Of a DNA stretch of 45,662 bases, positions 4,414-45,662 are shown piece by piece. This DNA is from Clostridia bacterium (GTDB lineage Bacteria > Bacillota > Clostridia > DUPQ01): positions 1-45,662 of the forward strand of contig JBAZFL010000003.1 of NCBI GenBank assembly GCA_041653455.1. Direction: 5' to 3'. Position numbers and translations under genes: made by a program. Every line of letters starts with the position of its first letter. Within the stretch, counting starts at the first letter, position 1. The notes beneath the pieces are model-generated. The model did no database searches. It had not been told where the DNA came from and was given only the letters and a program-made list of their open reading frames with translations.

Positions 4414-4833
4414 TCAAAACGGCAGGTTGTCGCCCAAATCTCTTATTGTTAATTCACAGCGCGGGTTGTCTTTATCCACGCCGCCGAAACGGTAATCTAT
4501 TGCCGGAATCACTTTGTAGGAATCATCGGAGATAACGCCAAAGTCTATCAGTGCATCGTCTGTGAACTTCTGGATTATCGAGCATACATTAGCTAGGTCG
4601 AACTTTCGGTTGCTTGATGCATAGATGGTGTAGGTGAAAAGAAACGGGGCTTCAGGGCGTTCTATAATAGGAATACTCGGTATTGCCTGATTGACTATTT
4701 CTTTCCATAAAACCTTACTTTGATTTAATGTCATATGATGAGTATTCCGATAGTTATTAAGATTAAGAATCCAGATGCGATCTTCTTTCGTTTTTCTTGG
4801 TATGGTTACTGATAAGGGCAAGATGATCTTCAT
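4414..4833 (-). CDS. RusA-like Holliday junction resolvase
   Basis: C-terminal half ([29 protein letters not shown]...[10 protein letters not shown]) aligns by eye with E. coli RusA ([28 protein letters not shown]...RLELTITEMG). The second Asp of the DxDN motif is Ala. ATGA coupling to the MTase gene. Confidence 0.6.
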
Positions 4834-5648
4834 TCGGCCTCCGCAAACTGTAAAACTGACTGTTGCAATCTCTTGACTGCTATTTCACAATACTTTTCTT
4901 CAATCTCAATCCCGATTGCTTTACGGTTTAATTGCTTGGCTATTTTTAGTGTTGTTCCACTTCCAGAGAATGGGTCCAGAATTAAATCATTTTGATTTGA
5001 CCATGAATTAATATGGTCATAGGCTAAATTATCAGGGAAGATTGCAGGATGGTCATAAGCGACAATATCTTTTGCCGACTTCATATAACCAACATCGTAA
5101 ATCCATACGTTTTCCCTGTTTCTTTCTTCTTTCCCTGTTTCGTATTTAATATTAGAAGTGCTGCCGTCTTTATTGCGGCGCGTTGTTGATGTTTTACCTT
5201 TAATGCGATACTCTTTGTATGTTGGGACACGGAAGATATTTGTTGTTTTTGGTTTGCCGTTTGAAAAGATAAACATATATTCAAAAACTGGTGCGTATCT
5301 GTTTTGTTCTGGAAACGAAAAATTATTTTTCCAATAAATCATCGTGTCGTGAAGTGATAAACCTTTTTCAAGAAACAAAAGTGCGTGTCGAAATGAGTTA
5401 CCCGTTTCCGAACCATTAACAGTAGAATCATTAACAATCCAAACACAAACACCACCCGATTTAACCACCGGATAAATTGCATTAATAGACGAAACATAAT
5501 CAAATTTATGTCCGCCATATTCCCGCAAATCATCATACGGCGGCGAAGTCAGCACTAAATCAACCGGCTCTAATTCCGGCAGTATTTCCCGACAATCGCC
5601 GTGATAAATCGTGATTCCGTATTGGTCGTCTTGGTAATAAGGCTTCAT
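4830..5648 (-). CDS. Beta-class amino DNA methyltransferase (N6A/N4C family)
   Basis: Motif IV SPPY is near the N-terminus and motif [10 protein letters not shown] near the C-terminus, which is the beta permutation. No adjacent restriction enzyme. Confidence 0.85.
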
Positions 5649-6951: not shown

Positions 6952-7094
6952 TGGACATAACTGAAACAGTCAGCCAGTTAAACGATGACGACATTATCTT
7001 GTTGCTTAAAGTTTTGTCATGTCCAGAGGGTCAAACAGAGGAAATTTATTTTAAGGAAAGGAAGACAGATGGAAGCAGGAAAACACAAAATTAG
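6951..7094 (+). CDS. Hypothetical small protein (47 aa)
   Basis: Hand-translated MDITETVSQLNDDDIILLLKVLSCPEGQ... TGATG stop/start overlap with the preceding ORF. Confidence 0.3.
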   Translation: MDITETVSQLNDDDIILLLKVLSCPEGQTEEIYFKERKTDGSRKTQN

Positions 7095-7959
7095 TTTTGC
7101 CGATTATCTTACCGACCCATGTGACAAACCCTCGCTGAGCCGGTCAACGATTAAGTCGCTAGTCAATGAATGTCCACGGAAAGCGTTTCACGGGCACCCG
7201 CGCTTGAATCCTGATTACGAGAAGGAAGAAAAGACTCAGTTTGACATTGGTTCGGCGGCGCACGATTTTTTTCTTGGCGGGGAAGATGCTGTAATTGTTT
7301 TCGATTATCCTGATTGGCGCAAGAAAGAAGCGCAAGAAGCAAAGGCAGAAGCAAGGGCGCAGGGTAAGACACCGTTATTAACTCACCAATTTGAGGAAAT
7401 TAACTCAATGGTCGAAGTTGCCCATGCAAGCCTTCTAACATTTGAAGCTCGCGGAGAAAAGCTCAATTTGCAAATTGCCGACGGTGAATCGGAATTAACC
7501 TATCTATGGCAGGAAAAAGAAACGTGGTTCAGGATAAGACCGGACTGGATTAACAAAGAGCGCACTATTATCTTGGATTATAAAACAACCGGACAGTCAG
7601 CCGACCCCGAAGATTACACCGGAATTATCTCAAACACCGGCCTTGACATTCAGGACGCTCTTTACCGCCGTGGTGTGAAAGCCATTGAGGGAACGGAGCC
7701 GGACTTTTATTTTCTTGTTCAAGAAGTCGATGCGCCTTACCTTTGTTCATTTATCGAACTGGATATGATGTTTAAGGACATGGGCGAAAGCAAAGTTAAT
7801 CTTGGAATTAAACTCTGGCGGCAATGTATGAAGTCCGGCGTGTGGTCAGCTTATCCAACGCAGTTATGCACGGTAGAGCCGAAACCGTGGTCACTCGCAT
7901 CGTGGGAACTCAAGAAGTCAATGATTTTATCGGGAGGGGATTATGCCGTATCAAATTAG
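7069..7959 (+). CDS. PD-(D/E)XK family exonuclease (RecE/DUF3799/Cas4-like)
   Basis: IRPDW...IILDYKTT (D..D-x-K) followed by QDALY (QxxxY). SD aaggaaagga precedes the ATG at 7069. Paired with an annealing-type ATPase downstream. Confidence 0.7.
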   Translation: MEAGKHKISFADYLTDPCDKPSLSRSTIKSLVNECPRKAFHGHPRLNPDYEKEEKTQFDIGSAAHDFFLGGEDAVIVFDYPDWRKKEAQEAKAEARAQGKTPLLTHQFEEINSMVEVAHASLLTFEARGEKLNLQIADGESELTYLWQEKETWFRIRPDWINKERTIILDYKTTGQSADPEDYTGIISNTGLDIQDALYRRGVKAIEGTEPDFYFLVQEVDAPYLCSFIELDMMFKDMGESKVNLGIKLWRQCMKSGVWSAYPTQLCTVEPKPWSLASWELKKSMILSGGDYAVSN

Positions 7960-25710: not shown

Positions 25711-28124
25711 TGCTGGCTGTATTCCTCAGTAAGATAACCGTAATCAAGCAAATAAAAAGACTCGCCCACTTTGTTATGTTCTATTTTAAGTGATAGGCAG
25801 TCACTAACAAAATTGGTGGCAAACTTATTCCGTTTTGACCGCTGGCCTGTATTTTCTGCGGCAAGTGAAAGCGTCCTTGCGGTTTGCGCCACCCCGTTAG
25901 CATAAGGTGTAATAGTCATATTTCCGGTTTGTGCTTTGGTACGGTAAATGATTTCACCATTCCTAATAACCGAACCATAGTAATTAAGTTCGTGAGTGAC
26001 GTATGCATCAACGGCTAAGGCAACATCATCTGTTCCGCTATTCAAGATATAAACAAATCCATCATCCGTTCCACCACCTAACTGAACAGTGCTGACGCTT
26101 CCGCTACCTGCGTCCAGTTCGGTCATGCAAGCAACTGGATAACCGTAACTATCCTCAGAGAAAGTCAAATCCAGCAGGTCATAAACAAGCCATGTGTTGC
26201 AAACGGTGGCAGAAGAACCAGTTACCAGACCTATTTTTAAGACCTGATAAGAGGAATCATACTTAATGAACATCTTGCTTTCATATCCTGACCTGATACA
26301 GTCAGAGGATGAAGGGTCAAAGTAATTCTTGATTGTATTAAAATTGGGAACGTGGCGCACTGTCTTGCCATCCGTGTATAAAATACCTCTCTTAGAGAGG
26401 ATAAAAGCCATTGTTACCCGTTCATCGTTTTGCCCATAGGGTAAACCGTCAACAACTACCAGAGATTGCGAGTTCATCCCGCCATAGTAATTGGATAATG
26501 TAATCTTTCCTAAGTTTGCCGGGGTGCTTCCTTGCAAGAGAGTTATACACCCGCCTTCCTCTCCGCGTTCCTCTTGGATGCAAAGCAACTCATTATAAAA
26601 CTTTCTGGCAGCAATTATCTTATTCGCCCTGCCATCACCCATTTGATAGATTGCGCTGTCCTGACCGGAAAGAATCTGAGGGTTGTCAGTGGATGAAAGA
26701 TAGAGATAAGAAGGGTCTTGGTCGAACACATAAACTCCCCTGTTCTTCCACACCGCATTGCACAAGCCAACACCGAACCGCGATATGTCAAAATAAGGAA
26801 TAACCTGAATACCAATATTAACATCAGCCGATAATGTTTTATCAACCGTAAACCGATACCAGTATGAGTCGTAGTTTAATTGATTAAATTGAGTAGGCTT
26901 AATTCCCGCTGTTCTCGGAAAGCTAACAAATCCAGATTGGCTTAACCCTGATGTTCCATCAGAATACGACCCAACTGTTACCCAAGAACCGGCAGGATTT
27001 AGATATTCAAATGAATCAATGGCGGTTGATGCTGTGGTATTCGGTGCAGTTCCCACATCTATATAAGCCGCCACAATCGGGTCAATAGAATTAAAGTAAA
27101 CGTAATCAGCATCGGTCATGCCGCCGATAGAAATTGAACTTGCACCGTAGCTGTAATAAACAGAGGAATGATAGTATTGCGCTTCGATAGCATCTTGAAA
27201 AACACCATCCCAAACGTCTTGGATAGATGTAAACCCCGAACCATAAGTGCAAGAAGTCACCTCAACCGTAGCGGATAAAGCCGCGCTAAAGGTTATTTGA
27301 ATCCAGAAACCGTTTGAGCCATACATATACTTCGGATAGGCATCTGTCGGTTGTGTCCAAGTGATATACCCTGTTCCGCTACAAGTCTTTCCGGTTACAG
27401 ATATTGTGCCATCGGTCTGACCGGAAACCGCAGTCCAAGAACCATTCCAGTATTTTACCGTGGCAACAACGGCATTAGTATTAACATTGGTATTAAAAGT
27501 AAGTTTTATTCTGTTAGACTGAATCTGTGAATTGATTACGATGCAGTCCGTGGCGTTTGTTCCTAAAGCTCCGATAGAAGCTACAGTGGAAGTGCTTGTA
27601 TCGTTTACCTGATCTGTGTAATCCGTTCCAATGGTCGGCATATCCGGCAACGTACTTGCAGACGAATAAGTTAATAACTTGGTAATGTAGTCATCAGTTC
27701 CCGCGCAGATTTGATGCTGGTCAACGCCGTTAGAAAATAAAAGTTTGTCGTTAATAACAGACCACGAAGCGGGAATTGAACTAGCAGAACCGCTAAACAC
27801 TTCGCTTCCGAAAGCACCTGTAGTTACGCCCGGAGGGGCAGTAGTTGCTTCCAGCACATCGTTGTCGGTCATTTGAGCGTAAAAATGCCTCTCTGTTCTC
27901 TTACCTTTTGAGAACTGGAATAGCGTCATTACGCCGTTTGTGCTGTCGGCTGTGGAGTGCTGTTTAATCATCCCTAGTCTTTGCTTCATGCCGGGGTGCA
28001 TCTGCCGCATATTCATTACTTTGGAATATGTGCCAAACTTCAGCAACGATGGTTCGTTATAACTGTTCTGACCGCCCATGAAAGGGACTGTTTTAATTTC
28101 GGTTGTCTGCTTAGATTGCGCCAT
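25707..28124 (-). CDS. Large tail structural protein (nozzle / tail tubular B-like position)
   Basis: 805 aa, ATGA/TAATG-coupled to both neighbours. Position is analogous to podovirus tail tube genes. No motif recognised. Confidence 0.45.
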   Translation of the reverse strand: MAQSKQTTEIKTVPFMGGQNSYNEPSLLKFGTYSKVMNMRQMHPGMKQRLGMIKQHSTADSTNGVMTLFQFSKGKRTERHFYAQMTDNDVLEATTAPPGVTTGAFGSEVFSGSASSIPASWSVINDKLLFSNGVDQHQICAGTDDYITKLLTYSSASTLPDMPTIGTDYTDQVNDTSTSTVASIGALGTNATDCIVINSQIQSNRIKLTFNTNVNTNAVVATVKYWNGSWTAVSGQTDGTISVTGKTCSGTGYITWTQPTDAYPKYMYGSNGFWIQITFSAALSATVEVTSCTYGSGFTSIQDVWDGVFQDAIEAQYYHSSVYYSYGASSISIGGMTDADYVYFNSIDPIVAAYIDVGTAPNTTASTAIDSFEYLNPAGSWVTVGSYSDGTSGLSQSGFVSFPRTAGIKPTQFNQLNYDSYWYRFTVDKTLSADVNIGIQVIPYFDISRFGVGLCNAVWKNRGVYVFDQDPSYLYLSSTDNPQILSGQDSAIYQMGDGRANKIIAARKFYNELLCIQEERGEEGGCITLLQGSTPANLGKITLSNYYGGMNSQSLVVVDGLPYGQNDERVTMAFILSKRGILYTDGKTVRHVPNFNTIKNYFDPSSSDCIRSGYESKMFIKYDSSYQVLKIGLVTGSSATVCNTWLVYDLLDLTFSEDSYGYPVACMTELDAGSGSVSTVQLGGGTDDGFVYILNSGTDDVALAVDAYVTHELNYYGSVIRNGEIIYRTKAQTGNMTITPYANGVAQTARTLSLAAENTGQRSKRNKFATNFVSDCLSLKIEHNKVGESFYLLDYGYLTEEYSQQ

Positions 28125-28972
28125 TAAACGTATGCCCTAAAGTCATAAAAGAGTTCATCCATCGGAATATCACCATGATAACTTCCGGTGAACGCTCTTA
28201 GTGTCTCGATTAAATCTTCTCGGAAATCTCCAATCTCCGGCACTTCCGCCCTCTGCGGAGAAACAACCTGATTCTTTAAAGCGATGATTGCTTTTTTAAC
28301 TATGAGATGATGGAAGGCTTCGGGAAGTTCTGATACTGTTCCGTAATATTTGCCTAATGCTGCCCTTGTAGCAATCGTGGCTATCCTTGTCGTGGCGTAA
28401 TCAGTGATTGTATCAGACCAACCATCGGTGATGTTTTCAATGACTATATTATTGTAATAATCGGCAATCTTCTTAGCATTGGTGTCGAGCGTGATGGTTG
28501 TAGCTGTGCCACCCACCGAACAGCCCTGAGTCAGTTCCTTCGGTTCGTAGTAATACCAAAAGGTCAACGTACCCGATGCTCCGCTATCCCTGACAATAGT
28601 ATTGCCCTGCCTGTAATAGAGGAAATCCGAGCCGGTTGTGTTGGTCATTGTTTTTGTTTTGACTGAAATGTTGCTGATTTTATTACCGTCACCGTCAATG
28701 ATATGCGATAAACGGAAAATTGCAGAAGGGATTGTATAGACACCGCTTGAGCCGGTAACAGTTGTTGAGGTTAAAAATAATTCAGGGAACCGGGCAAAGA
28801 GTAGATTCCATATAAATCTTTGGGAAATGTTGATTTTACGGACAATATCAGAATTGTCATAAACCCCCTTGTCGGTTCCCTGCATAAGTGCTGTTGAATA
28901 TTCATTTAATTCAGTCCTGATTTCTTCCAACATTCCATAGCAGTTGTTATACTGGTACAGGCTTTGTATCAT
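28124..28972 (-). CDS. Tail/adaptor structural protein (282 aa)
   Basis: Call rests on position only, directly upstream of the large tail gene. Confidence 0.4.
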   Translation of the reverse strand: MIQSLYQYNNCYGMLEEIRTELNEYSTALMQGTDKGVYDNSDIVRKINISQRFIWNLLFARFPELFLTSTTVTGSSGVYTIPSAIFRLSHIIDGDGNKISNISVKTKTMTNTTGSDFLYYRQGNTIVRDSGASGTLTFWYYYEPKELTQGCSVGGTATTITLDTNAKKIADYYNNIVIENITDGWSDTITDYATTRIATIATRAALGKYYGTVSELPEAFHHLIVKKAIIALKNQVVSPQRAEVPEIGDFREDLIETLRAFTGSYHGDIPMDELFYDFRAYV

Positions 28973-29597
28973 CTTTAAAGTCCTTGATTGGGTTGTGCTT
29001 AAAGTTTATGTGACTTTTCATTCTATTGGCGCGAACCATCTCTCCACAAATTCCACACGCTATTAATTCTTCGGCGCTATTATTTTTTTTTTGATTAACT
29101 GGTTCTTGCTGACCGCCTTTGGCTACCGTTGCCATGACTTCTTGCATCTGGTTTAACAGTGCCGCCATTTGCGTCTTTAATTCTTCGTTCTCCCTGCTAA
29201 GTTTTCCAATCTGCCCCTTTTCTCCTTCTGCCAGTGAATAGGGTTGCAATAACTCAATCCCTAACTCGATTGCGTATTGCTTGATTATCTTGCTTGGCAC
29301 ATCGTAGGGCTGACCGGATGCCTTACGTCTTTCATTCCTTTCGTTGTAGGTAACAATCTGCTTAATCTTAAATTCTCTGTTTCTCTCAATCGCGTCTTTG
29401 GCTATTGCATCTTCCTCGATTGACTTGCCATCATCATCAAAAATCAGTTTGGTCATGCCCCTTGCGGTAAGGTTATTCAGAACGTGCTTACCCATTGCTT
29501 CGTCAACCTTCATTCGCTTACCGGCAAGCAGGGTGTAACTTAATCCGGCATAACTAAACGGCATGTCCTCGTTCGTAGGATTCCATAAAAAAATCAT
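28947..29597 (-). CDS. Hypothetical protein with coiled coil and C-terminal C2H2-like zinc motif
   Basis: The ATG at 29595-29597 is preceded by ggaggg at 5-nt spacing. CGICGE...HINFKH at the C-terminus. Confidence 0.5.
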   Translation of the reverse strand: MIFLWNPTNEDMPFSYAGLSYTLLAGKRMKVDEAMGKHVLNNLTARGMTKLIFDDDGKSIEEDAIAKDAIERNREFKIKQIVTYNERNERRKASGQPYDVPSKIIKQYAIELGIELLQPYSLAEGEKGQIGKLSRENEELKTQMAALLNQMQEVMATVAKGGQQEPVNQKKNNSAEELIACGICGEMVRANRMKSHINFKHNPIKDFKDDTKPVPV

Positions 29598-31230
29598 AAT
29601 ATCCCTCCATTGGTCTGTATGAATATTGGGATTGCTCACAAGATTCATCAAATTCTAAAACTGTTTCGATCACTTCTTCCGGTTCTGGAAGATACTCCAC
29701 AATGCTGTGTCCCTTTGGTACATACTTAGCCACCCATACATCGGTAATGTCGCCACCGAAGTATGAGTTTTCTTCTTCCATTAATTTCTTATAAAGCGCC
29801 TTTGCCTTGTAATTCTTGCTTCTATTTCTAAAAGGCAATACATGGTCGGGGTGCTTGCAGGTAGGAATCAGTAAAATGTTATTGTCGAAAGCTCCGGCTA
29901 TGTGAATAGGTGCTGAATCATTTGAAATAAGCGTTTTTGCCATTGAAATTAACGCCACAAGCCCTCTCAGAGACAACTTATCCCTAAAGTCTATGCAATG
30001 AGTAGCATCCACTTCCAAAACGCTGTGAGCGTCATTTAAACGCTTCCCGATAATGCCTACCTTCTGACCAGACTCGATTAAACCGTCAATTATCTTCTGC
30101 CAGTATTCAACAGGAAAGGTCTTTGATTCCCACCCAACGCCCGGATGAACCAAAACAAGTTCTTCGGGTTCGTTGTAAATCTTTGTTACTTCAGCCATAT
30201 GTTCCTGCGCGAATGTCAACTTAATCTGTTTGTCATCATCGGATAACTGCCGACCAAGCATACAGGTTGAAACCCAATCTACAGGGTGCATAAAGTGAAA
30301 CGATATAGCTTTTCCAAAAGACTCCCACGGTAATTGGTGCGTGTTCATTTCGATTACAGCGTCAAAGTCACCATCTGGATAACCCTTGCTGAAATGGATG
30401 CCTTCGATATGGTCGTATATTTCATAATCTTTGCACATGAGCCAGATTTCACAATCCTTATAGGCTTTCTCCCTGATGTATCTGATAACTGGTTCTGCCG
30501 ATACAACGTCACCTATCCCGCCTAGCGACCAGATAAATATTTTCTTTTTGTATTCGTATTTCCCATTTGCTTCTTTCCACTTGATAATATCCCTATCCAT
30601 TTTCTTCATCATATTATCACCGTCACCGGCATAGTGGATAAGGTAGGAATCAAGTCTTGAAACTCCGGTTGCCCTGTCCATGATGGACATGCGGTTGAAC
30701 TTGTAATGCAGTTTAAAAATCTTTTCGCCGGATAGCATAATTTTCATGTTAAGGAAGGTCTGTTCTCCAAAAGAGTTTCTTAACTGTTTTACTTCCTCAA
30801 CTATCTTGAAAATATGTCTATGGCGGCGAGAACATACAAACACACCAGTGTTATAGTAAGTTGTTCCATCGTACCTGAATCCCTCAATTTGATAGACCTT
30901 CATCACTTCGTGGATGCAGATGTTGCGCGGGGTAAACTCGCCCTCGTTGAATATCCCGAATTCGTTTTCCGGCACTATGTCGAACAGCGAAGGTGCATCG
31001 TCACGGATGATAATATCAGCGTCTATATAAGCAATCCGGTCATATTCCTTTTTTAACAGGTCATAACAGCAGAATTTCAGCCAATGCGCCGTAGGAACTT
31101 GGCTTACATCATTCAGGATTATTAAATCAGCATCGCACTTATCGGCATAGGCGAGAAAATAAGGCTCGGTCTTTTTCCAGATCGCTTCGTATTTATCGCC
31201 AACAACGATTGTCAATATGGCATTTCTCAT
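29554..31230 (-). CDS. Bifunctional glycosyltransferase: N-terminal GT-A (GT8/GT34-like, DXD) fused to C-terminal GT9 (heptosyltransferase-like)
   Basis: N-terminal domain: AYIDADIIIRDD (DXD), YYNTGVFV, LIHYAGDG. C-terminal domain: SLGGIGDVVSAEPVIRYI, VLVHPGVGWESKTFPVEYWQKII, LISNDSAPIHIAGAF, which are classical GT9 blocks. Confidence 0.75.
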   Translation of the reverse strand: MRNAILTIVVGDKYEAIWKKTEPYFLAYADKCDADLIILNDVSQVPTAHWLKFCCYDLLKKEYDRIAYIDADIIIRDDAPSLFDIVPENEFGIFNEGEFTPRNICIHEVMKVYQIEGFRYDGTTYYNTGVFVCSRRHRHIFKIVEEVKQLRNSFGEQTFLNMKIMLSGEKIFKLHYKFNRMSIMDRATGVSRLDSYLIHYAGDGDNMMKKMDRDIIKWKEANGKYEYKKKIFIWSLGGIGDVVSAEPVIRYIREKAYKDCEIWLMCKDYEIYDHIEGIHFSKGYPDGDFDAVIEMNTHQLPWESFGKAISFHFMHPVDWVSTCMLGRQLSDDDKQIKLTFAQEHMAEVTKIYNEPEELVLVHPGVGWESKTFPVEYWQKIIDGLIESGQKVGIIGKRLNDAHSVLEVDATHCIDFRDKLSLRGLVALISMAKTLISNDSAPIHIAGAFDNNILLIPTCKHPDHVLPFRNRSKNYKAKALYKKLMEEENSYFGGDITDVWVAKYVPKGHSIVEYLPEPEEVIETVLEFDESCEQSQYSYRPMEGYYDFFMESYERGHAV

Positions 31231-31625
31231 ATCGGTCTATATGCCGGGATTTTCTTACCCGCGCCGGTCATTTTGTTAAAAGCGTTTCGTAATTGAATCT
31301 TGTCGTCTTTAGTCATGTTACGAATCATGTCTTTCCGCTTAGTATCATCTGCGCTTCTTACATCGTGCATATACTTTGCGGTCTTTTCTAATCGGTCTTT
31401 AACCCGCTGTTTCTCCATATCCCCTTCAGAGAGGACGGCAATCTCGCGCATATCCGGTTGTCGGAAACCACCGTCATCTCTCTTTACAAGGAGGAGATTA
31501 ACTGGTTGACCATAACCTCGGTCATACACAATAACAAAATGCTCATGTTCTTTCCGAAACACACAATCTAAGCGTTTATCAAGATTCTTGAGTAAGCGCA
31601 TAAATCCTCTTTCCGGTGTAATCAT
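31227..31625 (-). CDS. Hypothetical protein (132 aa)
   Basis: ATGA-coupled on both sides within the glycosyltransferase cassette. Confidence 0.55.
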   Translation of the reverse strand: MITPERGFMRLLKNLDKRLDCVFRKEHEHFVIVYDRGYGQPVNLLLVKRDDGGFRQPDMREIAVLSEGDMEKQRVKDRLEKTAKYMHDVRSADDTKRKDMIRNMTKDDKIQLRNAFNKMTGAGKKIPAYRPI

Positions 31626-32176
31626 AACAATCCCTTCTGCGGAGTTCCGTACCCATACATTACCCCGCCGTTAGTTCTTAAAATCAAACTGCCGCTTCCA
31701 TGAACTTTTACTTTAATCCCTCTGCCAAGAGCCTGACCTATCCAAAATTCTAAAGATGGTTTCTGCCATAAGTATTCTGAACGTGCGGTCATATTGACTC
31801 CGTAAAGGTTAATCTCCGTGAATCCCTTATAGATTGCCAGTGCAATAGCGTAATCAATTGTATTCGAGAAATAGTCAGTCTCGAAGTATTCAATGATTTC
31901 ATTTATTGGATATGACCCCAAGTTGATGTAAGGCACGTTATTCTCAATCGCTAATTGCCTTGACTTAATCGCGCCCTGCTTTTCTAACTCTCCCCACCGA
32001 CCATCTTCATAGACGTTCATGTCTATTACTAGGTCAACTTTTCTTTTCAGGTTAATGAGGGTAATGCCCCATGCGAGTTCATCGCACGGAGCATTTTCCC
32101 ATCCCTTACCTCTGCCGATGATATTAACTTTCACGTTAGGTTGTGGTATCAACCAACGGATGCGGCCCCGCCACAT
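31622..32176 (-). CDS. CstII/DUF115 (MptE/Maf)-like Rossmann protein; possible sugar transferase
   Basis: VNIIGRGKGW resembles the (V/I)IAGNGPSL block. DYAIALAIYKGFTEINLYGVNM resembles the CstII block VAIALGYKEIYLSGIDF. Weak, by-eye similarity only. The start is uncertain (41-nt overlap upstream). Confidence 0.35.
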   Translation of the reverse strand: MWRGRIRWLIPQPNVKVNIIGRGKGWENAPCDELAWGITLINLKRKVDLVIDMNVYEDGRWGELEKQGAIKSRQLAIENNVPYINLGSYPINEIIEYFETDYFSNTIDYAIALAIYKGFTEINLYGVNMTARSEYLWQKPSLEFWIGQALGRGIKVKVHGSGSLILRTNGGVMYGYGTPQKGLL

Positions 32177-33047
32177 TAGCGGCAGTCAGCCAGTTATCGG
32201 CTGCCCTTGCTTCATTAACAACCAATGCCTCAAGCGGAGTAGCAATACCCGTTACCGTTGCGGCACTCATCAATTTGTTGCCGGACGTATAGAACAAACT
32301 TGCTGCATCATTGATGGTTATCCCTGCTGCGGAAATTAAGTTATCCTTGATAACCGAACCCCAAGATGAGGTCATGCCCGAACCAGCAACGATTCCGCTG
32401 GCGGCTGCGTCAACCATCGTATTGCCAACTATTTCCGTCCCACCAGCTTCGCCAGTACCGAAGGTCATATAAGAAGTTGCAAACGCACCCTCAAATCTAT
32501 TGCTAAACACCTTCAAAAATGGAGAAGCGGTAGCCTGAATCCCAATAGTCGTAGTTCCGTTTGTGGTCAATGTACTTCTACCAATCTGGAAACCGCTTGA
32601 ACTTGAAGCCAATGTGATAATAGGGGCAGCAGCACCAGTAGATTTCAACCAGAGATTAAGAAAACGAGTTCCATAATTGTCATCATTAACGGGAACATGG
32701 TGACCCAAAATTCCAGGCTGAGTATTACCATCATAAGAACCGCAACCAACAACATCGCACTTATTCGGGAACGCAACCAACGACTCCGTGGTATAATCTG
32801 ACCACAGATAGATTGTATTACGTCTTGCCCATCTTGCTCTGCGAGCCATATCAAGATTGCTTACAGAAATAGCTTTGGCAAGAGTCTTAAAAGCCCTATC
32901 AATCGACAGACCATCCCAAGCATCATTACCGGAGTTGTTCTCAACATAATACACCGTACCGCCCAATGCTCCACGAGCTTCTACGCCCATTCCAAGATTG
33001 TCGATATAGTTGACTAAACTTGAATCTAAATTGTATTTCTTAATCAT
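32136..33047 (-). CDS. Right-handed beta-helix protein immediately downstream of the capsid gene
   Basis: YYVENNSGNDAWDGLSIDRAFKTLAKAI is the typical beta-helix/DUF1565 N-terminal motif. The remainder is Gly/Ser/Thr/Ala-rich and repetitive. SD aaggaga. Confidence 0.55.
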   Translation of the reverse strand: MIKKYNLDSSLVNYIDNLGMGVEARGALGGTVYYVENNSGNDAWDGLSIDRAFKTLAKAISVSNLDMARRARWARRNTIYLWSDYTTESLVAFPNKCDVVGCGSYDGNTQPGILGHHVPVNDDNYGTRFLNLWLKSTGAAAPIITLASSSSGFQIGRSTLTTNGTTTIGIQATASPFLKVFSNRFEGAFATSYMTFGTGEAGGTEIVGNTMVDAAASGIVAGSGMTSSWGSVIKDNLISAAGITINDAASLFYTSGNKLMSAATVTGIATPLEALVVNEARAADNWLTAANVAGPHPLVDTTT

Positions 33048-33071: not shown

Positions 33072-33097
33072 CTAGAGGGCGAGTAATCGCCCTCTAG
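33072..33097 (-). promoter_or_regulatory. Perfect 10-bp stem-loop just downstream of the capsid gene
   Basis: ctagagggcg (33072-33081) / cgccctctag (33088-33097) around a 6-nt loop. No U-tract follows on the minus strand. Confidence 0.6.
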
Positions 33098-33112: not shown

Positions 33113-34441
33113 TTATGAATATAGGCTCGGTTCAACCAAATCTTTTACGAGCGCGAGACAATTTCTCTGCTCGCACCCTAACTGGGTATAAATTCTGAGA
33201 TATGCATCCCATTCATCGTACCCTGCTCTCTGGTGCAACTGAGAATTATCCAGATTGCCCCAACCAAGAGGACTCATTTCGTACTTCTGGATTACATCAT
33301 CAGGGTAGCAGTAAATAAGATTCGGCTGGCACAGCGGGTCAACGATGATTTCCACAGAACCATCACCACCGGAGAAGGTCAACACTTCGTAACCGCCAAC
33401 CAGTTTGCCCGGAGCAAAACGAACATCCGGCATTAACAGGTTTGCGTATTTACGTTTCTGACCCAATCCCATGAGCATTTTCTTGATGCTGGCGCCGGAA
33501 GCTGTACGAACTACATCAACAGCCTGAAGCATAAGGTCAACGGAAAGCTCACGGTTGACACTGGAATTGCTGAGAATATTTGCCGCCCATTTCGGCTGAG
33601 AAGCAACGGTAATGCCTTCATAAACGGAAAGCAGCGTACCATTGTCAAACATACCGTAAAGGCCAGTCATTTCGGCAGGAGTGTCGGTGGAGGCATGAGA
33701 AAGATCACGCGCACCCATCTTTACAACGACCATTCCTTCTGTCGTGGTACAGGTAACGCCATTGGTCAAAGTGGAAAGAGTGGGGTGATTTGCCGCAAAC
33801 GTAGTGGCATTGGTTTCAAAGGTTACAACCTTAGTAGAAGGCGCAACGCTCTTTACTCTCTGTGCATAAGCGGCGGAATCAGACGAACCAAGAACGGTAC
33901 CACCGGCAGAAGCGTAGAAGTCAACCAACTGGCCTTCAATAAAGTATTTAATGCCTAAATCGTTATCAAAGGTTACTGCATAAGTGGCGTTGGAAGCAGC
34001 GCTCGAAGCCGCAGAAGCGCGACCAATCATTCCAAAACCGTCCCAATGCATCTGGCGGTTCATGTCAACAATAATGCTCTGATAGATGTCCTCGATTTCA
34101 TCCGCGAGTCCATCAACAAAAGCCGCTTCATTACCCTTTGCCGCTTCGATAGCGGGGCCGGTGATTCTCAGCGAACCATACAGATAGGCAGGGGTGATTG
34201 TTCCATTGATTTTAACGCCGGTCATCGGGTCAGGAAGTTTCCCTGATTCTGCGCGACCACCTGTTGACTGATTACGGGCTATTCTAAGCCCAAAAGTATA
34301 ACCCTTGCCCTTCGGGGATTTATCCGATTTCGGGAACAGGTTATAAGTAGTTTTTTCATCGTTGAACTGATTTTTCAGTCCGTCACCATATACGGTTTTC
34401 AACGCATTGGTTAAATTTGTCAAATCTGCATAACTGGACAT
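33113..34441 (-). CDS. Major capsid protein (HK97-fold candidate)
   Basis: 442 aa directly after the scaffold-like gene, with strong SD aaaggaga. The N-terminal region has the LP-containing pattern common in phage MCPs. The call rests mainly on synteny and composition. Confidence 0.75.
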   Translation of the reverse strand: MSSYADLTNLTNALKTVYGDGLKNQFNDEKTTYNLFPKSDKSPKGKGYTFGLRIARNQSTGGRAESGKLPDPMTGVKINGTITPAYLYGSLRITGPAIEAAKGNEAAFVDGLADEIEDIYQSIIVDMNRQMHWDGFGMIGRASAASSAASNATYAVTFDNDLGIKYFIEGQLVDFYASAGGTVLGSSDSAAYAQRVKSVAPSTKVVTFETNATTFAANHPTLSTLTNGVTCTTTEGMVVVKMGARDLSHASTDTPAEMTGLYGMFDNGTLLSVYEGITVASQPKWAANILSNSSVNRELSVDLMLQAVDVVRTASGASIKKMLMGLGQKRKYANLLMPDVRFAPGKLVGGYEVLTFSGGDGSVEIIVDPLCQPNLIYCYPDDVIQKYEMSPLGWGNLDNSQLHQRAGYDEWDAYLRIYTQLGCEQRNCLALVKDLVEPSLYS

Positions 34442-45324: not shown

Positions 45325-45555
45325 TCATTGTTTCTCCATTTTCTCGGCTATGAGCAAATCCGCGTAATGCTTAATTTTAATCATATCAATAGGATTAAGC
45401 TCTTTATCCGCATTACGGGTGGCATATTTTATGATTGAGGATAGCGCAAAAGGTTTAAAAATGCCCTTTGCCTTATACAAATCTATTGGTTCAACTGTTC
45501 CCGTTTTGTAGTGTTCGCTACCTTCGTTTTTTAATTCTTCCCATGTCTTAAACAT
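45325..45555 (-). CDS. DUF3310-like protein
   Basis: HYKTGTVEPIDLY...SSIIKYATR...IKIKHYADLL fits the DUF3310 pattern. The ATG at 45553-45555 is preceded by aaggagggg. This start lies inside the terminal overlap. Confidence 0.65.
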   Translation of the reverse strand: MFKTWEELKNEGSEHYKTGTVEPIDLYKAKGIFKPFALSSIIKYATRNADKELNPIDMIKIKHYADLLIAEKMEKQ

Positions 45556-45662
45556 TTCCCCTCCTTGCCGTTTATTTGTCCGATGTTTTGTCATAATTAT
45601 GTGTTTGTTTTTGTGTCATATCTTCCCGCCAAACGCCGCGAAAATGTCCTTTAAAATGTCCG
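45536..45662. repeat. Contig-end overlap, copy 2 (identical to 1..127)
   Basis: Read directly. Confidence 0.95.

Follow-up and report, generated by a model that had tools for sequence, protein, structure and literature searches.

Why would a phage keep glycosyltransferase-like genes between its capsid gene and its tail genes, and what would their products modify? The question was raised by a 45,662-nt stretch of DNA (the window), which carries the complete, 45.5-kb genome of an uncultivated, podovirus-like phage. The original prediction had described three translationally coupled ORFs as one virion glycosylation cassette within the capsid-to-tail operon. The three ORFs are real and lie on the minus strand, both ATGA stop/start overlaps are present (31227-31230 and 31622-31625), and the genes are indeed located between the capsid gene and the head-to-tail adaptor gene (Table 1). 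The stretch between these two genes appears to be a variable island with two independent accessory modules for the modification of virion-associated proteins, and we give a probability of about one in two to the reading that these sugar-transfer modules decorate virion proteins with sugars.

Table 1 Features of the variable island and its flanks; positions are those of the window.
Feature	Position	Strand	Basis or remark
Major capsid protein, 442 aa	33113..34441	-	PHROG 14242 major head protein, E 2.4e-39; weak SU10_MCP match; head-module anchor
Perfect hairpin, 11-bp stem	33072..33097		Between capsid stop codon and AAGGAG ribosome-binding site of bh303
bh303, right-handed parallel beta-helix protein, 303 aa	32136..33047	-	AF2 model and Foldseek
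bh303 C-terminal tail P-L-V-D-T-T-T	32139..32159	-	Predicted acceptor or recognition tag for orf184
orf184, really 170 aa, GTG start	31622..32134	-	Minimal CstII/Maf(DUF115)/MptE-like Rossmann enzyme (candidate transferase)
orf132, 132 aa, core head-module gene	31227..31625	-	Present in all related loci
GT558, whole ORF, 558 aa, GT8+GT9 fusion	29554-31230	-	Two Pfam domains above gathering cut-offs
GT558 N-terminal domain, residues 1 to ~225, GT8-type GT-A	30556..31230	-	Pfam PF01501 and DxD motif D70-A-D72 (31015-31023)
GT558 C-terminal domain, residues ~228-530, GT9-type GT-B, heptosyltransferase-like	29641..30549	-	Pfam PF01075
orf234, core gene	28947..29651	-	Coiled coil and C-terminal C2HC zinc finger
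Head-to-tail adaptor	28124..28972	-	Pfam SU10_adaptor, E 9e-11; end of variable island

The major capsid protein shows 49-91% identity across 66 IMG/VR loci. The hairpin just 3′ of its gene has no T tract; this strong structure, possibly an attenuator or an RNA-stability element, suggests a lower expression of the genes beyond it, in place of the predicted expression in stoichiometry with the virion proteins. At the other end of the island, orf234, whose true start is likely the ATG at 29597, comes after GT558, or straight after orf132 where the glycosyltransferase is missing.

The 558-aa ORF turned out to be the fusion of a GT-A and a GT9 domain that had been proposed. Pfam Glyco_transf_8 (PF01501) matches residues 47-202 with 32.5 bits (gathering cut-off 24.3), and Glyco_transf_9 (PF01075) matches residues 336-476 with 50.9 bits (gathering cut-off 22). 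The motifs quoted earlier are real and invariant in an alignment of 39 relatives at 41-77% identity, in which the GT8 half keeps D70-A-D72, N127/G129, E156-Q157 and H199-Y-A-G and the GT9 half keeps G237-G-x-G-D241, H362/G364/K370 (HPGxGW..K) and N437-D-S-x-P441. Besides the Pfam score, the first half has the DxD and the downstream His, N-x-G and (D/E)-Q motifs of retaining GT-A enzymes; its residues were equated with those of LgtC through the motif match and a weak PDB profile alignment (E 0.013). The second half passes the Pfam threshold and resembles solved heptosyltransferases, with profile matches to WaaF (1psw, E 2.9e-6), the GT9 structure 3tov and TibC (3.4e-3). WaaF and WaaC are its closest solved relatives, and an NDSxPxH(I/V)A(G/A)A block aligns between GT558 and WaaF 1psw. 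These PDB matches span the donor half only; in the acceptor-binding half the profile search found no detectable similarity to LPS heptosyltransferases, and by this comparison that half is divergent. In one relative, an intein-like element sits exactly at the donor-binding Lys of the GT9 domain. The profile search suggested with the original prediction supported both the GT folds and the catalytic residues, and with both domains above cut-off and the signature residues invariant, we count GT558 as a presumably competent catalyst.

A search for the GT8-GT9 fusion returned 898 relatives at E<=1e-3; among the 120 relatives listed, lengths range from 525 to 907 aa, most have both Pfam domains and many lie on 40-55-kb contigs. 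In 185,579 species genomes, every occurrence of the fusion was on a MAG contig of <=30 kb; the contigs were assigned to mutually unrelated phyla, including an archaeon, which points to mis-binned phage, and no isolate chromosome or prophage contained it; a search of 50,697 deposited phage records gave no match either. Judging from these searches, it is an accessory, phage-only gene that always sits inside virion-gene modules. Its place between orf132 and orf234 is constant in the related head modules that have it, about 24 of some 30, and the 6 related genomes without it fall into two parts of the capsid tree: GT558 is dispensable and has been gained or lost within the clade. In 54 non-redundant loci from other lineages (contigs up to 416 kb), a gene with RCC1 repeats adjoins the fusion in 38 and lies within two genes of it in 5 more (43/54 in total), with baseplate, collagen-like and fibre genes around them. 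Methyltransferases are also recurrent partners, either fused (GT8-GT9-FkbM in L012 and L013, MT24-GT8-GT9 in L014) or adjacent, as a CmcI/rhamnosyl-O-methyltransferase-like gene (L003), class-I methyltransferases (L002 and L005 by Pfam; L025, L033 and L058 by clustering with these) or FkbM genes (L004, L009, L045 and L067 by Pfam; L048 and L051 by clustering). The FkbM domain of these relatives has a weak Pfam match to V. cholerae RfbT.

These observations bear on a different role, in which GT558 would act late in infection and extend the LPS core or some other surface glycan of the host with heptose and hexose, blocking re-adsorption of progeny to lysing cells and debris or excluding rival phages, with the methyltransferases of its relatives capping the glycan. 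Synthesis of the LPS core is the classic role of GT8 and GT9 enzymes, FkbM-type methyltransferases act on O-antigens too, as the RfbT match recalls, and the nearest solved GT9 enzymes are LPS-core heptosyltransferases. Gain and loss within a clade is also frequent for receptor-modifying genes, and viral GT9 genes have been annotated as LPS auxiliary metabolic genes (PMC10747093). The distribution speaks against such a role: not found in the isolate chromosomes, prophages and deposited phages searched, the fusion always occurs in virion modules, away from lysogeny or early genes, and its linkage to RCC1-repeat fibres has no obvious LPS rationale. The divergence of the GT9 acceptor half points the same way, as does a domain scan of the window's non-structural ORFs of at least 150 aa, which found no integrase. 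Remodelling of host glycans is, in our view, the less likely reading but a serious rival. Its variant as a prophage LPS/O-antigen conversion moron was rejected, since the fusion matches no isolate chromosome among the species genomes searched and no deposited phage record, is ATGA-coupled in the head operon and has no integrase domain beside it in the window ORFs scanned; siting in virion modules on phage-like contigs only likewise speaks against such a moron.

If GT558 acts on the virion, the clade itself does not single out its acceptor: no feature of the capsid, adaptor, nozzle, scaffold, orf132 or orf234 co-varies with presence of the gene, it shows no co-variation with the beta-helix protein, and no acceptor could be inferred from comparison of the clade loci. 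Nor did the idea of one three-gene cassette hold, as orf132 is kept where the glycosyltransferase is absent. It occurs at every related locus, the 6 without the GT among them, is translationally coupled on both sides and has no Pfam, PHROG or PDB match; orf132 is a conserved core head-module gene, not a GT-specific one. The pair of bh303 and orf184 on the one hand and GT558 on the other are likewise independent and occur without each other. The first two travel together between phage lineages, including lineages without GT8-GT9; in L086, L089 and L090, which represent a different lineage with another capsid type and no fusion, they again form an adjacent pair.

For orf184, the predicted CstII/DUF115-like fold was upheld by modelling, whereas the length of 184 aa was not: its relatives begin with MKVNIIG, placing the true start at GTG 32134, one base past the bh303 stop codon (TAA at 32138-32136). 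Pfam gave no match even at E<=10, and the PDB no sequence or profile match. Foldseek, run on an AlphaFold model (pLDDT 90.8) as had been proposed, found CstII GT42 sialyltransferases as the closest structures (E 2.4e-4, probability 0.99-1.0, with a TM-score of only 0.34-0.43) and phage proteins annotated as MptE-like/DUF115 (TM 0.43-0.54, probability 1.0); thiamin pyrophosphokinase (TM 0.47) fits at least as well as CstII. All of these structural neighbours are nucleotide-dependent transferases. The family conserves a G-x-G-x-G-W N-terminal loop and invariant D101, E134, K139, Y89, Y135 and Y174; its alignment has no invariant His as a counterpart of the catalytic base in CstII, and no catalytic residue could be assigned from it. 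Membership in the GT42 CstII-type family (no Pfam or PDB match, no such His) and in the DUF115/MptE-like sequence family (PF01973, Maf; no Pfam match) was therefore rejected, the likeness being one of fold and structure. The superfamily, for which Pfam has no model, is large (4715 cluster representatives at E<=1e-3), and one relative is a fusion with a methyltransferase.

Directly upstream, the suspected beta-helix protein is confirmed as right-handed by its AF2 model (pLDDT 84.2, with a flexible N-terminal stretch of ~30 aa and an unstructured C-terminal tail), by Foldseek matches to rhamnogalacturonan and pectate lyases, AlgE4 and tailspikes, and by Pfam Beta_helix in some relatives. It belongs to a hypervariable "post-capsid" gene family (cluster C2) that 28 of 30 related head modules carry, and its gene position suggests that it is part of the virion. 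About 88 of 120 homologues contain the motif [YWF]P-x-x-D-[TS]-[TA]-[TAV], the codons of which differ synonymously between loci, and in the window bh303 is the only ORF with a P-x-x-D-T-T-T-type end. Presence of this tail goes with presence of orf184: 11 loci have both, about 25 have neither and none is discordant, counts that are not phylogenetically independent. L091, near-isogenic to the loci of the other lineage, lacks the tail motif as well as orf184. Three upstream proteins with the motif have a body that is not detectably homologous to bh303, yet end in PAVDTVT. In a test on 80 further loci with orf184 relatives, the upstream ORF ended in Ser/Thr in 26 of 37 cases for close relatives (background 95/438, p=3e-9) and in 15 of 25 for distant ones (p=7e-5). 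Phage-encoded transferase genes are thus combined with a tail that tracks the enzyme, as a virion glycosylation system would have it, and the P-x-x-D-T-T-T tail is predicted to be the acceptor or recognition tag of orf184. The earlier suggestion that the beta-helix serves as acceptor is plausible for orf184 in view of the perfect co-variation; GT558 shows no such co-variation.

The same pattern would be produced by a dedicated folding or assembly chaperone that binds the C-terminus of the beta-helix, like tail-fibre assembly proteins, with GT558 functionally unrelated. Downstream position, coupling and strict co-variation with an upstream C-terminus are exactly what fibre chaperones show, and the missing catalytic assignment and low TM-scores to enzymes fit as well. 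However, a Rossmann-type fold with the G-x-G-x-G-W loop and invariant polar and aromatic residues is typical of a ligand-binding enzyme, transferases as the only structural neighbours and a methyltransferase fusion are hard to align with a chaperone, and Ser/Thr-rich ends on unrelated upstream proteins are more easily explained by a modification site than by a chaperone for one particular fold; we regard the chaperone as improbable. GT8 and GT9 folds are absent from known DNA glycosyltransferases, and the GT is consistently accompanied by genes for capsid, fibre, RCC1 and methyltransferase proteins. That the enzymes instead modify phage DNA (base hypermodification) or a small molecule, their structural-operon siting being incidental, deserves very little credence, even though DNA-glycosylating phage enzymes are common (bioRxiv 10.1101/2023.12.21.572611) and the window encodes an N6/N4 DNA methylase, because no hydroxymethylase, dioxygenase or other base-modification gene turned up beside the GT in the >150 loci inspected.

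Returning to the decoration of virion proteins, the observed folds, conserved catalytic motifs, synteny and co-variation allow us to sketch donors, order of action and acceptors conditionally. In the first module, orf184 would recognise the exposed C-terminal P-x-x-D-T-T-T tail of bh303 and move a nucleotide-activated group to its threonines. By analogy with Maf on flagellin, this group would most likely be a sugar; it could be something else, because the TM-score to CstII is low, the invariant His is missing and thiamin pyrophosphokinase fits as well. In the second, a cytoplasmic, two-headed GT558 would add two successive sugars, with an inverting GT-B (the GT9 half) and a retaining DxD GT-A (the GT8 half). 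These sugars would come from host nucleotide-sugar pools. The phage encodes no sugar-nucleotide synthesis genes; heptose-synthesis genes, too, were not found among the window ORFs scanned. The acceptor would be a virion surface protein, either a capsid-associated fibre or the capsid here and RCC1-repeat fibre proteins in other clades, and the product a short glycan, in some relatives capped by the fused or adjacent O-methyltransferase.

If this is true, glycosylated particles would be much commoner among phages than the handful of mycobacteriophage examples known so far suggests. More tentatively, and with the odds somewhat against it, two undescribed, very large phage-specific enzyme families may together provide environmental phages, podovirus-like, myovirus-like and jumbo phages alike, with a general toolkit for virion glycosylation: a ~170 aa Maf/CstII-like transferase that reads a C-terminal "glyco-tag" (P-x-x-D-T-T-T or other Ser/Thr-rich ends) encoded just upstream, and a GT8-GT9(-methyltransferase) assembly line that makes short methyl-capped glycans on capsid-associated or RCC1-repeat fibre proteins.

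Several known systems resemble parts of this arrangement. The LPS-core enzymes WaaC/WaaF (GT9) and LgtC/WaaO-type enzymes (GT8) belong to the same Pfam families as GT558, with conserved catalytic motifs, but are bacterial proteins that stand alone and have their genes in LPS loci, in contrast to a fused protein encoded in virion modules on phage-like contigs only. The protein heptosyltransferases TibC/AAH share the GT9 fold and act on Ser of beta-helical passengers, and a beta-helix gene lies near GT558; they have a conserved Cys cluster for an iron site. The specific likeness to TibC that had been considered did not hold up (E 3.4e-3 over 81 residues, weaker than the WaaF match), and GT558 was rejected as a TibC/AAH (BAHT) member, only C105 and C458 being near-invariant, with no conserved multi-Cys site. 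The best structural neighbours of orf184, CstII (GT42) and Maf/DUF115 (MptE-like), share its N-terminal G-x-G-x-x loop and an "AIALAI..G..EI.LYG" strand-helix block; Maf enzymes, putative flagellin nonulosonic-acid transferases, are thought to act on protein Ser/Thr. In contrast to both, orf184 has only 170 aa, no lid or flanking domains and no invariant His, and its TM-scores reach only 0.34-0.54. A064R of chlorovirus PBCV-1, which carries two rhamnosyltransferase domains and a methyltransferase domain and acts on the capsid glycan, is like the GT-GT-MT or MT-GT-GT proteins of L012, L013 and L014 a multidomain viral polypeptide building and methyl-capping a short glycan; its domains are unrelated in sequence, the virus is eukaryotic, the capsid glycan is N-linked, and GT558 itself has no methyltransferase domain. 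To our knowledge, the virion-glycosylating enzymes of mycobacteriophages belong to other families, with neither a GT8-GT9 fusion nor a CstII-like enzyme among them. According to Freeman et al. 2023, as cited in PMC12619734, their glycans were shown by mass spectrometry and the acceptors are the capsid and tail-tube subunits themselves, whereas here the acceptor is predicted from genes alone and would be a separate beta-helix protein. Those virions, too, are reported there to be glycosylated by phage-encoded glycosyltransferases, and their glycans are located at the C-termini of the capsid and tail-tube subunits, which parallels the pairing of the D-T-T-T tail with orf184.

The window spans one complete genome of a phage, circularly permuted or terminally redundant, with 45,535 bp of unique sequence and a 127-bp terminal direct repeat at 1-127 and 45536-45662. 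Its minus strand carries, in this order, the genes for terminase, portal and scaffold, followed by those for the major capsid protein, the beta-helix protein bh303, orf184 (an ORF first called with 184 aa), orf132, the glycosyltransferase fusion GT558, orf234, an SU10-type adaptor and the large tail proteins. The original prediction had placed the glycosyltransferase genes between the capsid and tail genes, and they are indeed embedded in this head-to-tail operon; the ATGA overlaps it had named at both ends of orf132 exist as well. The start codon of orf234 is probably ATG 29597, with a GGAGG 5 nt upstream and a 44 nt overlap with the 3' end of GT558, and its product ends in a C2HC/C2H2 zinc finger only in some relatives and in basic tails in others. 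Elsewhere in the window we noted an N6/N4 DNA methylase gene at 4830-5648(-) and a PD-(D/E)XK (DUF3799) nuclease gene at 6985-7959(+), and the window ORFs scanned showed neither an integrase nor a DNA polymerase domain. Ten further ORFs of the window, scanned against PHROG, yielded no spanin, one weak partial endolysin-family match (a 106-aa ORF, E 5.5e-5) and no further clue to the host envelope. DNA and protein searches of 50,697 phage records gave no match among deposited phages, so that no annotated relative exists.

Genes of the capsid-to-adaptor region, in the order of the minus strand (window coordinates)
Feature	Position	Strand
Major capsid protein	33113-34441	-
bh303 (303 aa)	32136-33047	-
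orf184, as first called (184 aa)	31622-32176	-
orf132 (132 aa)	31227-31625	-
GT558 (558 aa)	29554-31230	-
orf234 (234 aa)	28947-29651	-
SU10-type adaptor	28124-28972	-

A perfect hairpin at 33072-33097, with an 11-bp stem containing 7 G-C pairs, lies directly 3' of the capsid stop codon, ahead of the strong ribosome-binding site of bh303. It lacks a T tract and may act as an attenuator or an mRNA-stability element by which the balance between capsid protein and downstream products is set. Because of this hairpin, the genes 3' of the capsid gene are probably expressed in lower amounts than the capsid protein, which would suit enzymes and minor decorations.

For comparison we used 66 IMG/VR loci anchored on the capsid protein plus loci reached via individual proteins. 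A GT8-GT9 gene is located between orf132 and orf234 in ~24 of the ~30 distinct loci that reach the adaptor. orf184 goes with the protein of the gene just before it and not with the glycosyltransferase. The six loci without it (L060, L064, L071, L072, L079 and L092) fall at two places in a rough capsid tree and have orf234 directly after orf132 or, in L064, after one short unassigned ORF. Since these six loci keep both genes, orf132 and orf234 are core head-module genes and the GT8-GT9 gene is an accessory insert, and the proposed cassette of three ATGA-coupled genes has to be given up. A post-capsid gene, assigned to the bh303 family when this is taken broadly, occurs in 28 of 30 loci and is hypervariable. 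Between capsid and adaptor lies a general hotspot for insertions, whose cargo includes HNH/EndoVII genes, class-I and FkbM methyltransferases, a B12-radical-SAM enzyme and a collagen-repeat protein. HNH/Endonuclease-VII homing-type genes lie directly 3' of the capsid gene in nine related genomes (L004 3428-4267, L005 4557-5099 and seven others), the B12-binding radical-SAM gene lies between orf184 and orf132 in L004 (6429-7604), the collagen-repeat gene in or beside the island of L067 (12538-13497), and an asparagine-synthase-like gene just after the adaptor in L092 (9416-10102). Within this island, bh303 with orf184 and GT558 form two modules that are independent of each other.

The predicted fusion of a GT-A domain with a GT9 domain in GT558 was borne out: residues 47-202 match Glyco_transf_8 and residues 336-476 match Glyco_transf_9, both above the curated Pfam thresholds. 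The GT8 signatures D70-x-D72, N127/G129, E156-Q157 and H199-Y-A-G and the GT9 signatures G-G-x-G-D241, H362-x-G364...K370 and N437-D-S-x-P441 are invariant in 39 relatives of 41-77% identity, and together with the Pfam and profile matches they make both halves look catalytically competent. Against the PDB, the family profile found WaaF (E 2.9e-6), another GT9 structure, TibC (3.4e-3) and LgtC (0.013), and the more specific assignment as a TibC-like protein heptosyltransferase was dropped, WaaF scoring better than TibC. One 907-aa homologue, P0103, contains a ~350-aa intein-like LAGLIDADG insert (residues ~382-731) that breaks the GT9 domain at a precise point, right behind the conserved Lys of the donor-binding site (...GWETK, then the insert ending ...VTHN, then TFPV...); it may be a class-3-type intein, as it has no Cys1, yet a Cys in block F. 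In L001 (9956-11638; 272+281 aa) and L015 (9974-11650; 330+227 aa) the gene is split into two ORFs, which could reflect a frameshift, pseudogene formation or an error of assembly.

For the GT8-GT9 fusion a search gave 898 relatives at E<=1e-3, and the family has at least 898 clusters at 90% identity. Among the 120 matches listed, lengths range from 525 to 907 aa, most have both Pfam domains and many lie on 40-55-kb contigs. None of the relatives is among the deposited phages. Across 185,579 species genomes the fusion turns up solely on short contigs of MAGs whose phyla are unrelated to one another, a pattern typical of mis-binned phage, and the host labels of these MAGs contradict each other; the family is restricted to phage-like contigs. 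Two kinds of neighbour recur. Class-I or FkbM methyltransferase genes adjoin the glycosyltransferase gene in at least 10 loci of the window clade, a CmcI/rhamnosyl-O-methyltransferase-like gene does so in L003, and GT8-GT9-FkbM fusions (L012, L013) and an MT24-GT8-GT9 fusion (L014) join the activities in one protein. Such adjacency was found in 11 loci with the GT8-GT9 gene versus 0 of 6 without it, a difference not significant alone, and the argument is carried by the domain fusions, which would make sense if a short glycan is first assembled and then capped by methylation. Outside the window clade, 80 loci on contigs of up to 416 kb gave 54 non-redundant loci, of which 38 have an RCC1-repeat (beta-propeller) gene directly adjoining the glycosyltransferase gene and five more have one at most two genes away; among the other 11, four have the glycosyltransferase at the contig edge. 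There (IMG/VR loci L173-L245) the gene resides in tail-fibre modules, including those on contigs of 100-416 kb, commonly with Baseplate-J, collagen-like fibre, LamG and GT2-like genes, for example in L221 in the order fibre (745 aa), 121 aa, RCC1 (758), GT (532), 186, 149 and 760. With these methyltransferase and RCC1/tail-fibre neighbourhoods across lineages, GT8-GT9 is linked throughout to genes for surface proteins of the virion, in several phage architectures that are unrelated to one another.

These associations suggest that GT558 would modify virion proteins, its inverting GT9 half and retaining GT8 half adding successive residues. The host would supply the nucleotide sugars, as the window ORFs scanned showed no sugar-nucleotide genes. 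When loci with and without the gene were compared, no C-terminal feature of the capsid, scaffold, adaptor, nozzle, orf132, orf234 or post-capsid proteins tracked its presence, and no acceptor was identified in the window clade. The main alternative, that GT558 remodels the host envelope (LPS), would fit the names of the GT8 and GT9 families and the fact that the gene is accessory, but it leaves both the phage-only distribution and the fibre/RCC1 linkage unexplained, and we consider it unlikely, if well worth keeping in mind. Glycosylation of DNA or small molecules is highly improbable.

The other module pairs orf184 with bh303. All relatives of orf184 begin with MKVNIIG, which sets its true start at GTG 32134, one base past the bh303 stop codon, and its length at 170 aa. 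Sequence and profile searches of Pfam, PHROG and the PDB gave nothing usable for orf184, orf132 or bh303, and only predicted structures were informative. The predicted likeness of orf184 to CstII/DUF115 holds at the fold level and fails at the family level, where no Pfam, PHROG or PDB sequence match was obtained. The best PDB neighbours of its model (pLDDT 90.8) are the GT42 sialyltransferases CstII and Cst-I, with probabilities of 0.99-1.0 at a TM of only 0.34-0.43, and thiamin pyrophosphokinase (TM 0.47); among viral models, uncharacterised phage proteins reach TM 0.73 and large phage proteins annotated as MptE-like/DUF115 about 0.5. The bh303 model is a right-handed beta-helix with a loose N-terminus of ~30 residues and seven unstructured final residues, PLVDTTT.

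This tail varies together with orf184. Where orf184 follows a bh303 homologue, the latter ends in [YWF]P-x-x-D-T-T-T or a close variant; homologues without orf184 have unrelated ends, and across loci the motif and the gene occur together in 11, are both missing in about 25 and are discordant in none. L086, L089 and L090, from a different lineage that lacks GT8-GT9 and whose capsid protein is of the Phage_capsid_4 type (311-313 aa), have adjacent homologues of bh303 and orf184 (each 54-62% identity) between capsid and adaptor, whereas L091, with the same gene order as L090, has neither motif nor orf184. In L022, L024 and L028 the ~310-aa protein upstream of orf184 is not detectably bh303-like and still ends in PAVDTVT or PAVDVVT. 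Of 120 bh303 homologues in the database, about 88 carry the tail, and bh303 itself is the only window ORF with such an end. Its codons vary synonymously and do not resemble a ribosome-binding site, indicating that selection acts on the peptide. IMG/VR holds more than 570 loci with orf184 relatives; in a wider test on 80 further loci, the ORF upstream ended in Ser or Thr in 26 of 37 cases for close relatives (p 3e-9) and in 15 of 25 for distant ones of <45% identity (p 7e-5), compared with 95 of 438 background ORFs taken from these loci.

We infer that the target of orf184, or at least its ligand, is the short Ser/Thr-rich C-terminal tail of the upstream structural protein. Judged by its fold neighbours, the likeliest chemistry would be transfer of a nucleotide-activated sugar to Thr of this tail. 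A chaperone could also bind the tail, a role we regard as rather improbable, and the pyrophosphokinase-like neighbour means that orf184 could transfer a non-sugar group. Clustered at 50% identity, the superfamily of orf184 forms at least 4,715 groups; it has no Pfam model and one informative domain fusion, to a class-I methyltransferase. Distant paralogues occur in head modules of other SU10-adaptor phages beside other glycan-type genes: L087 (3500-8272) encodes a beta-helix-like protein, a 410-aa Methyltransf_24 protein, two orf184-like proteins and a 443-aa protein, putatively GT-B-like by a guess from sequence, and in L088 (1815-3133) a 229-aa protein directly upstream of the paralogue is, on a similar guess, putatively GT-A-like. 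As its gene directly follows the capsid gene, bh303 might be a capsid-attached fibre, in a position that we liken to that of head-fibre genes of other podoviruses.

The observation behind the original prediction thus stands, and its interpretation is partly supported and refined. Literature searches on GT8-GT9 fusions, head-fibre glycosylation and a link between RCC1 and glycosyltransferases found nothing relevant ('RCC1' matched culture-collection strain numbers). We could find no description of the GT8-GT9 fusion family, linked as it is to RCC1 and methyltransferase genes, or of the minimal CstII/Maf-like enzyme and its C-terminal Thr-tag. If our reading is correct, thousands of environmental phages sugar-coat capsid appendages or fibres, with bearing on adsorption, environmental adhesion, shielding from proteases and immunity, and host-range evolution; the 7-residue tag and the 170-aa enzyme would be a portable, directly testable system, and viral GT9 genes, now routinely annotated as auxiliary metabolic genes for an 'LPS heptosyltransferase', would need a corrected label. 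As a kind of system, glycosylation of phage virions is already known, to our knowledge shown experimentally only for a handful of actinobacteriophages. The proposed action of orf184 on a Thr tail echoes that of Maf enzymes, which are thought to act on flagellin. The C-terminal position of the bh303 tail likewise echoes mycobacteriophages, for which PMC12619734 describes glycans on the C-termini of capsid and tail-tube proteins.
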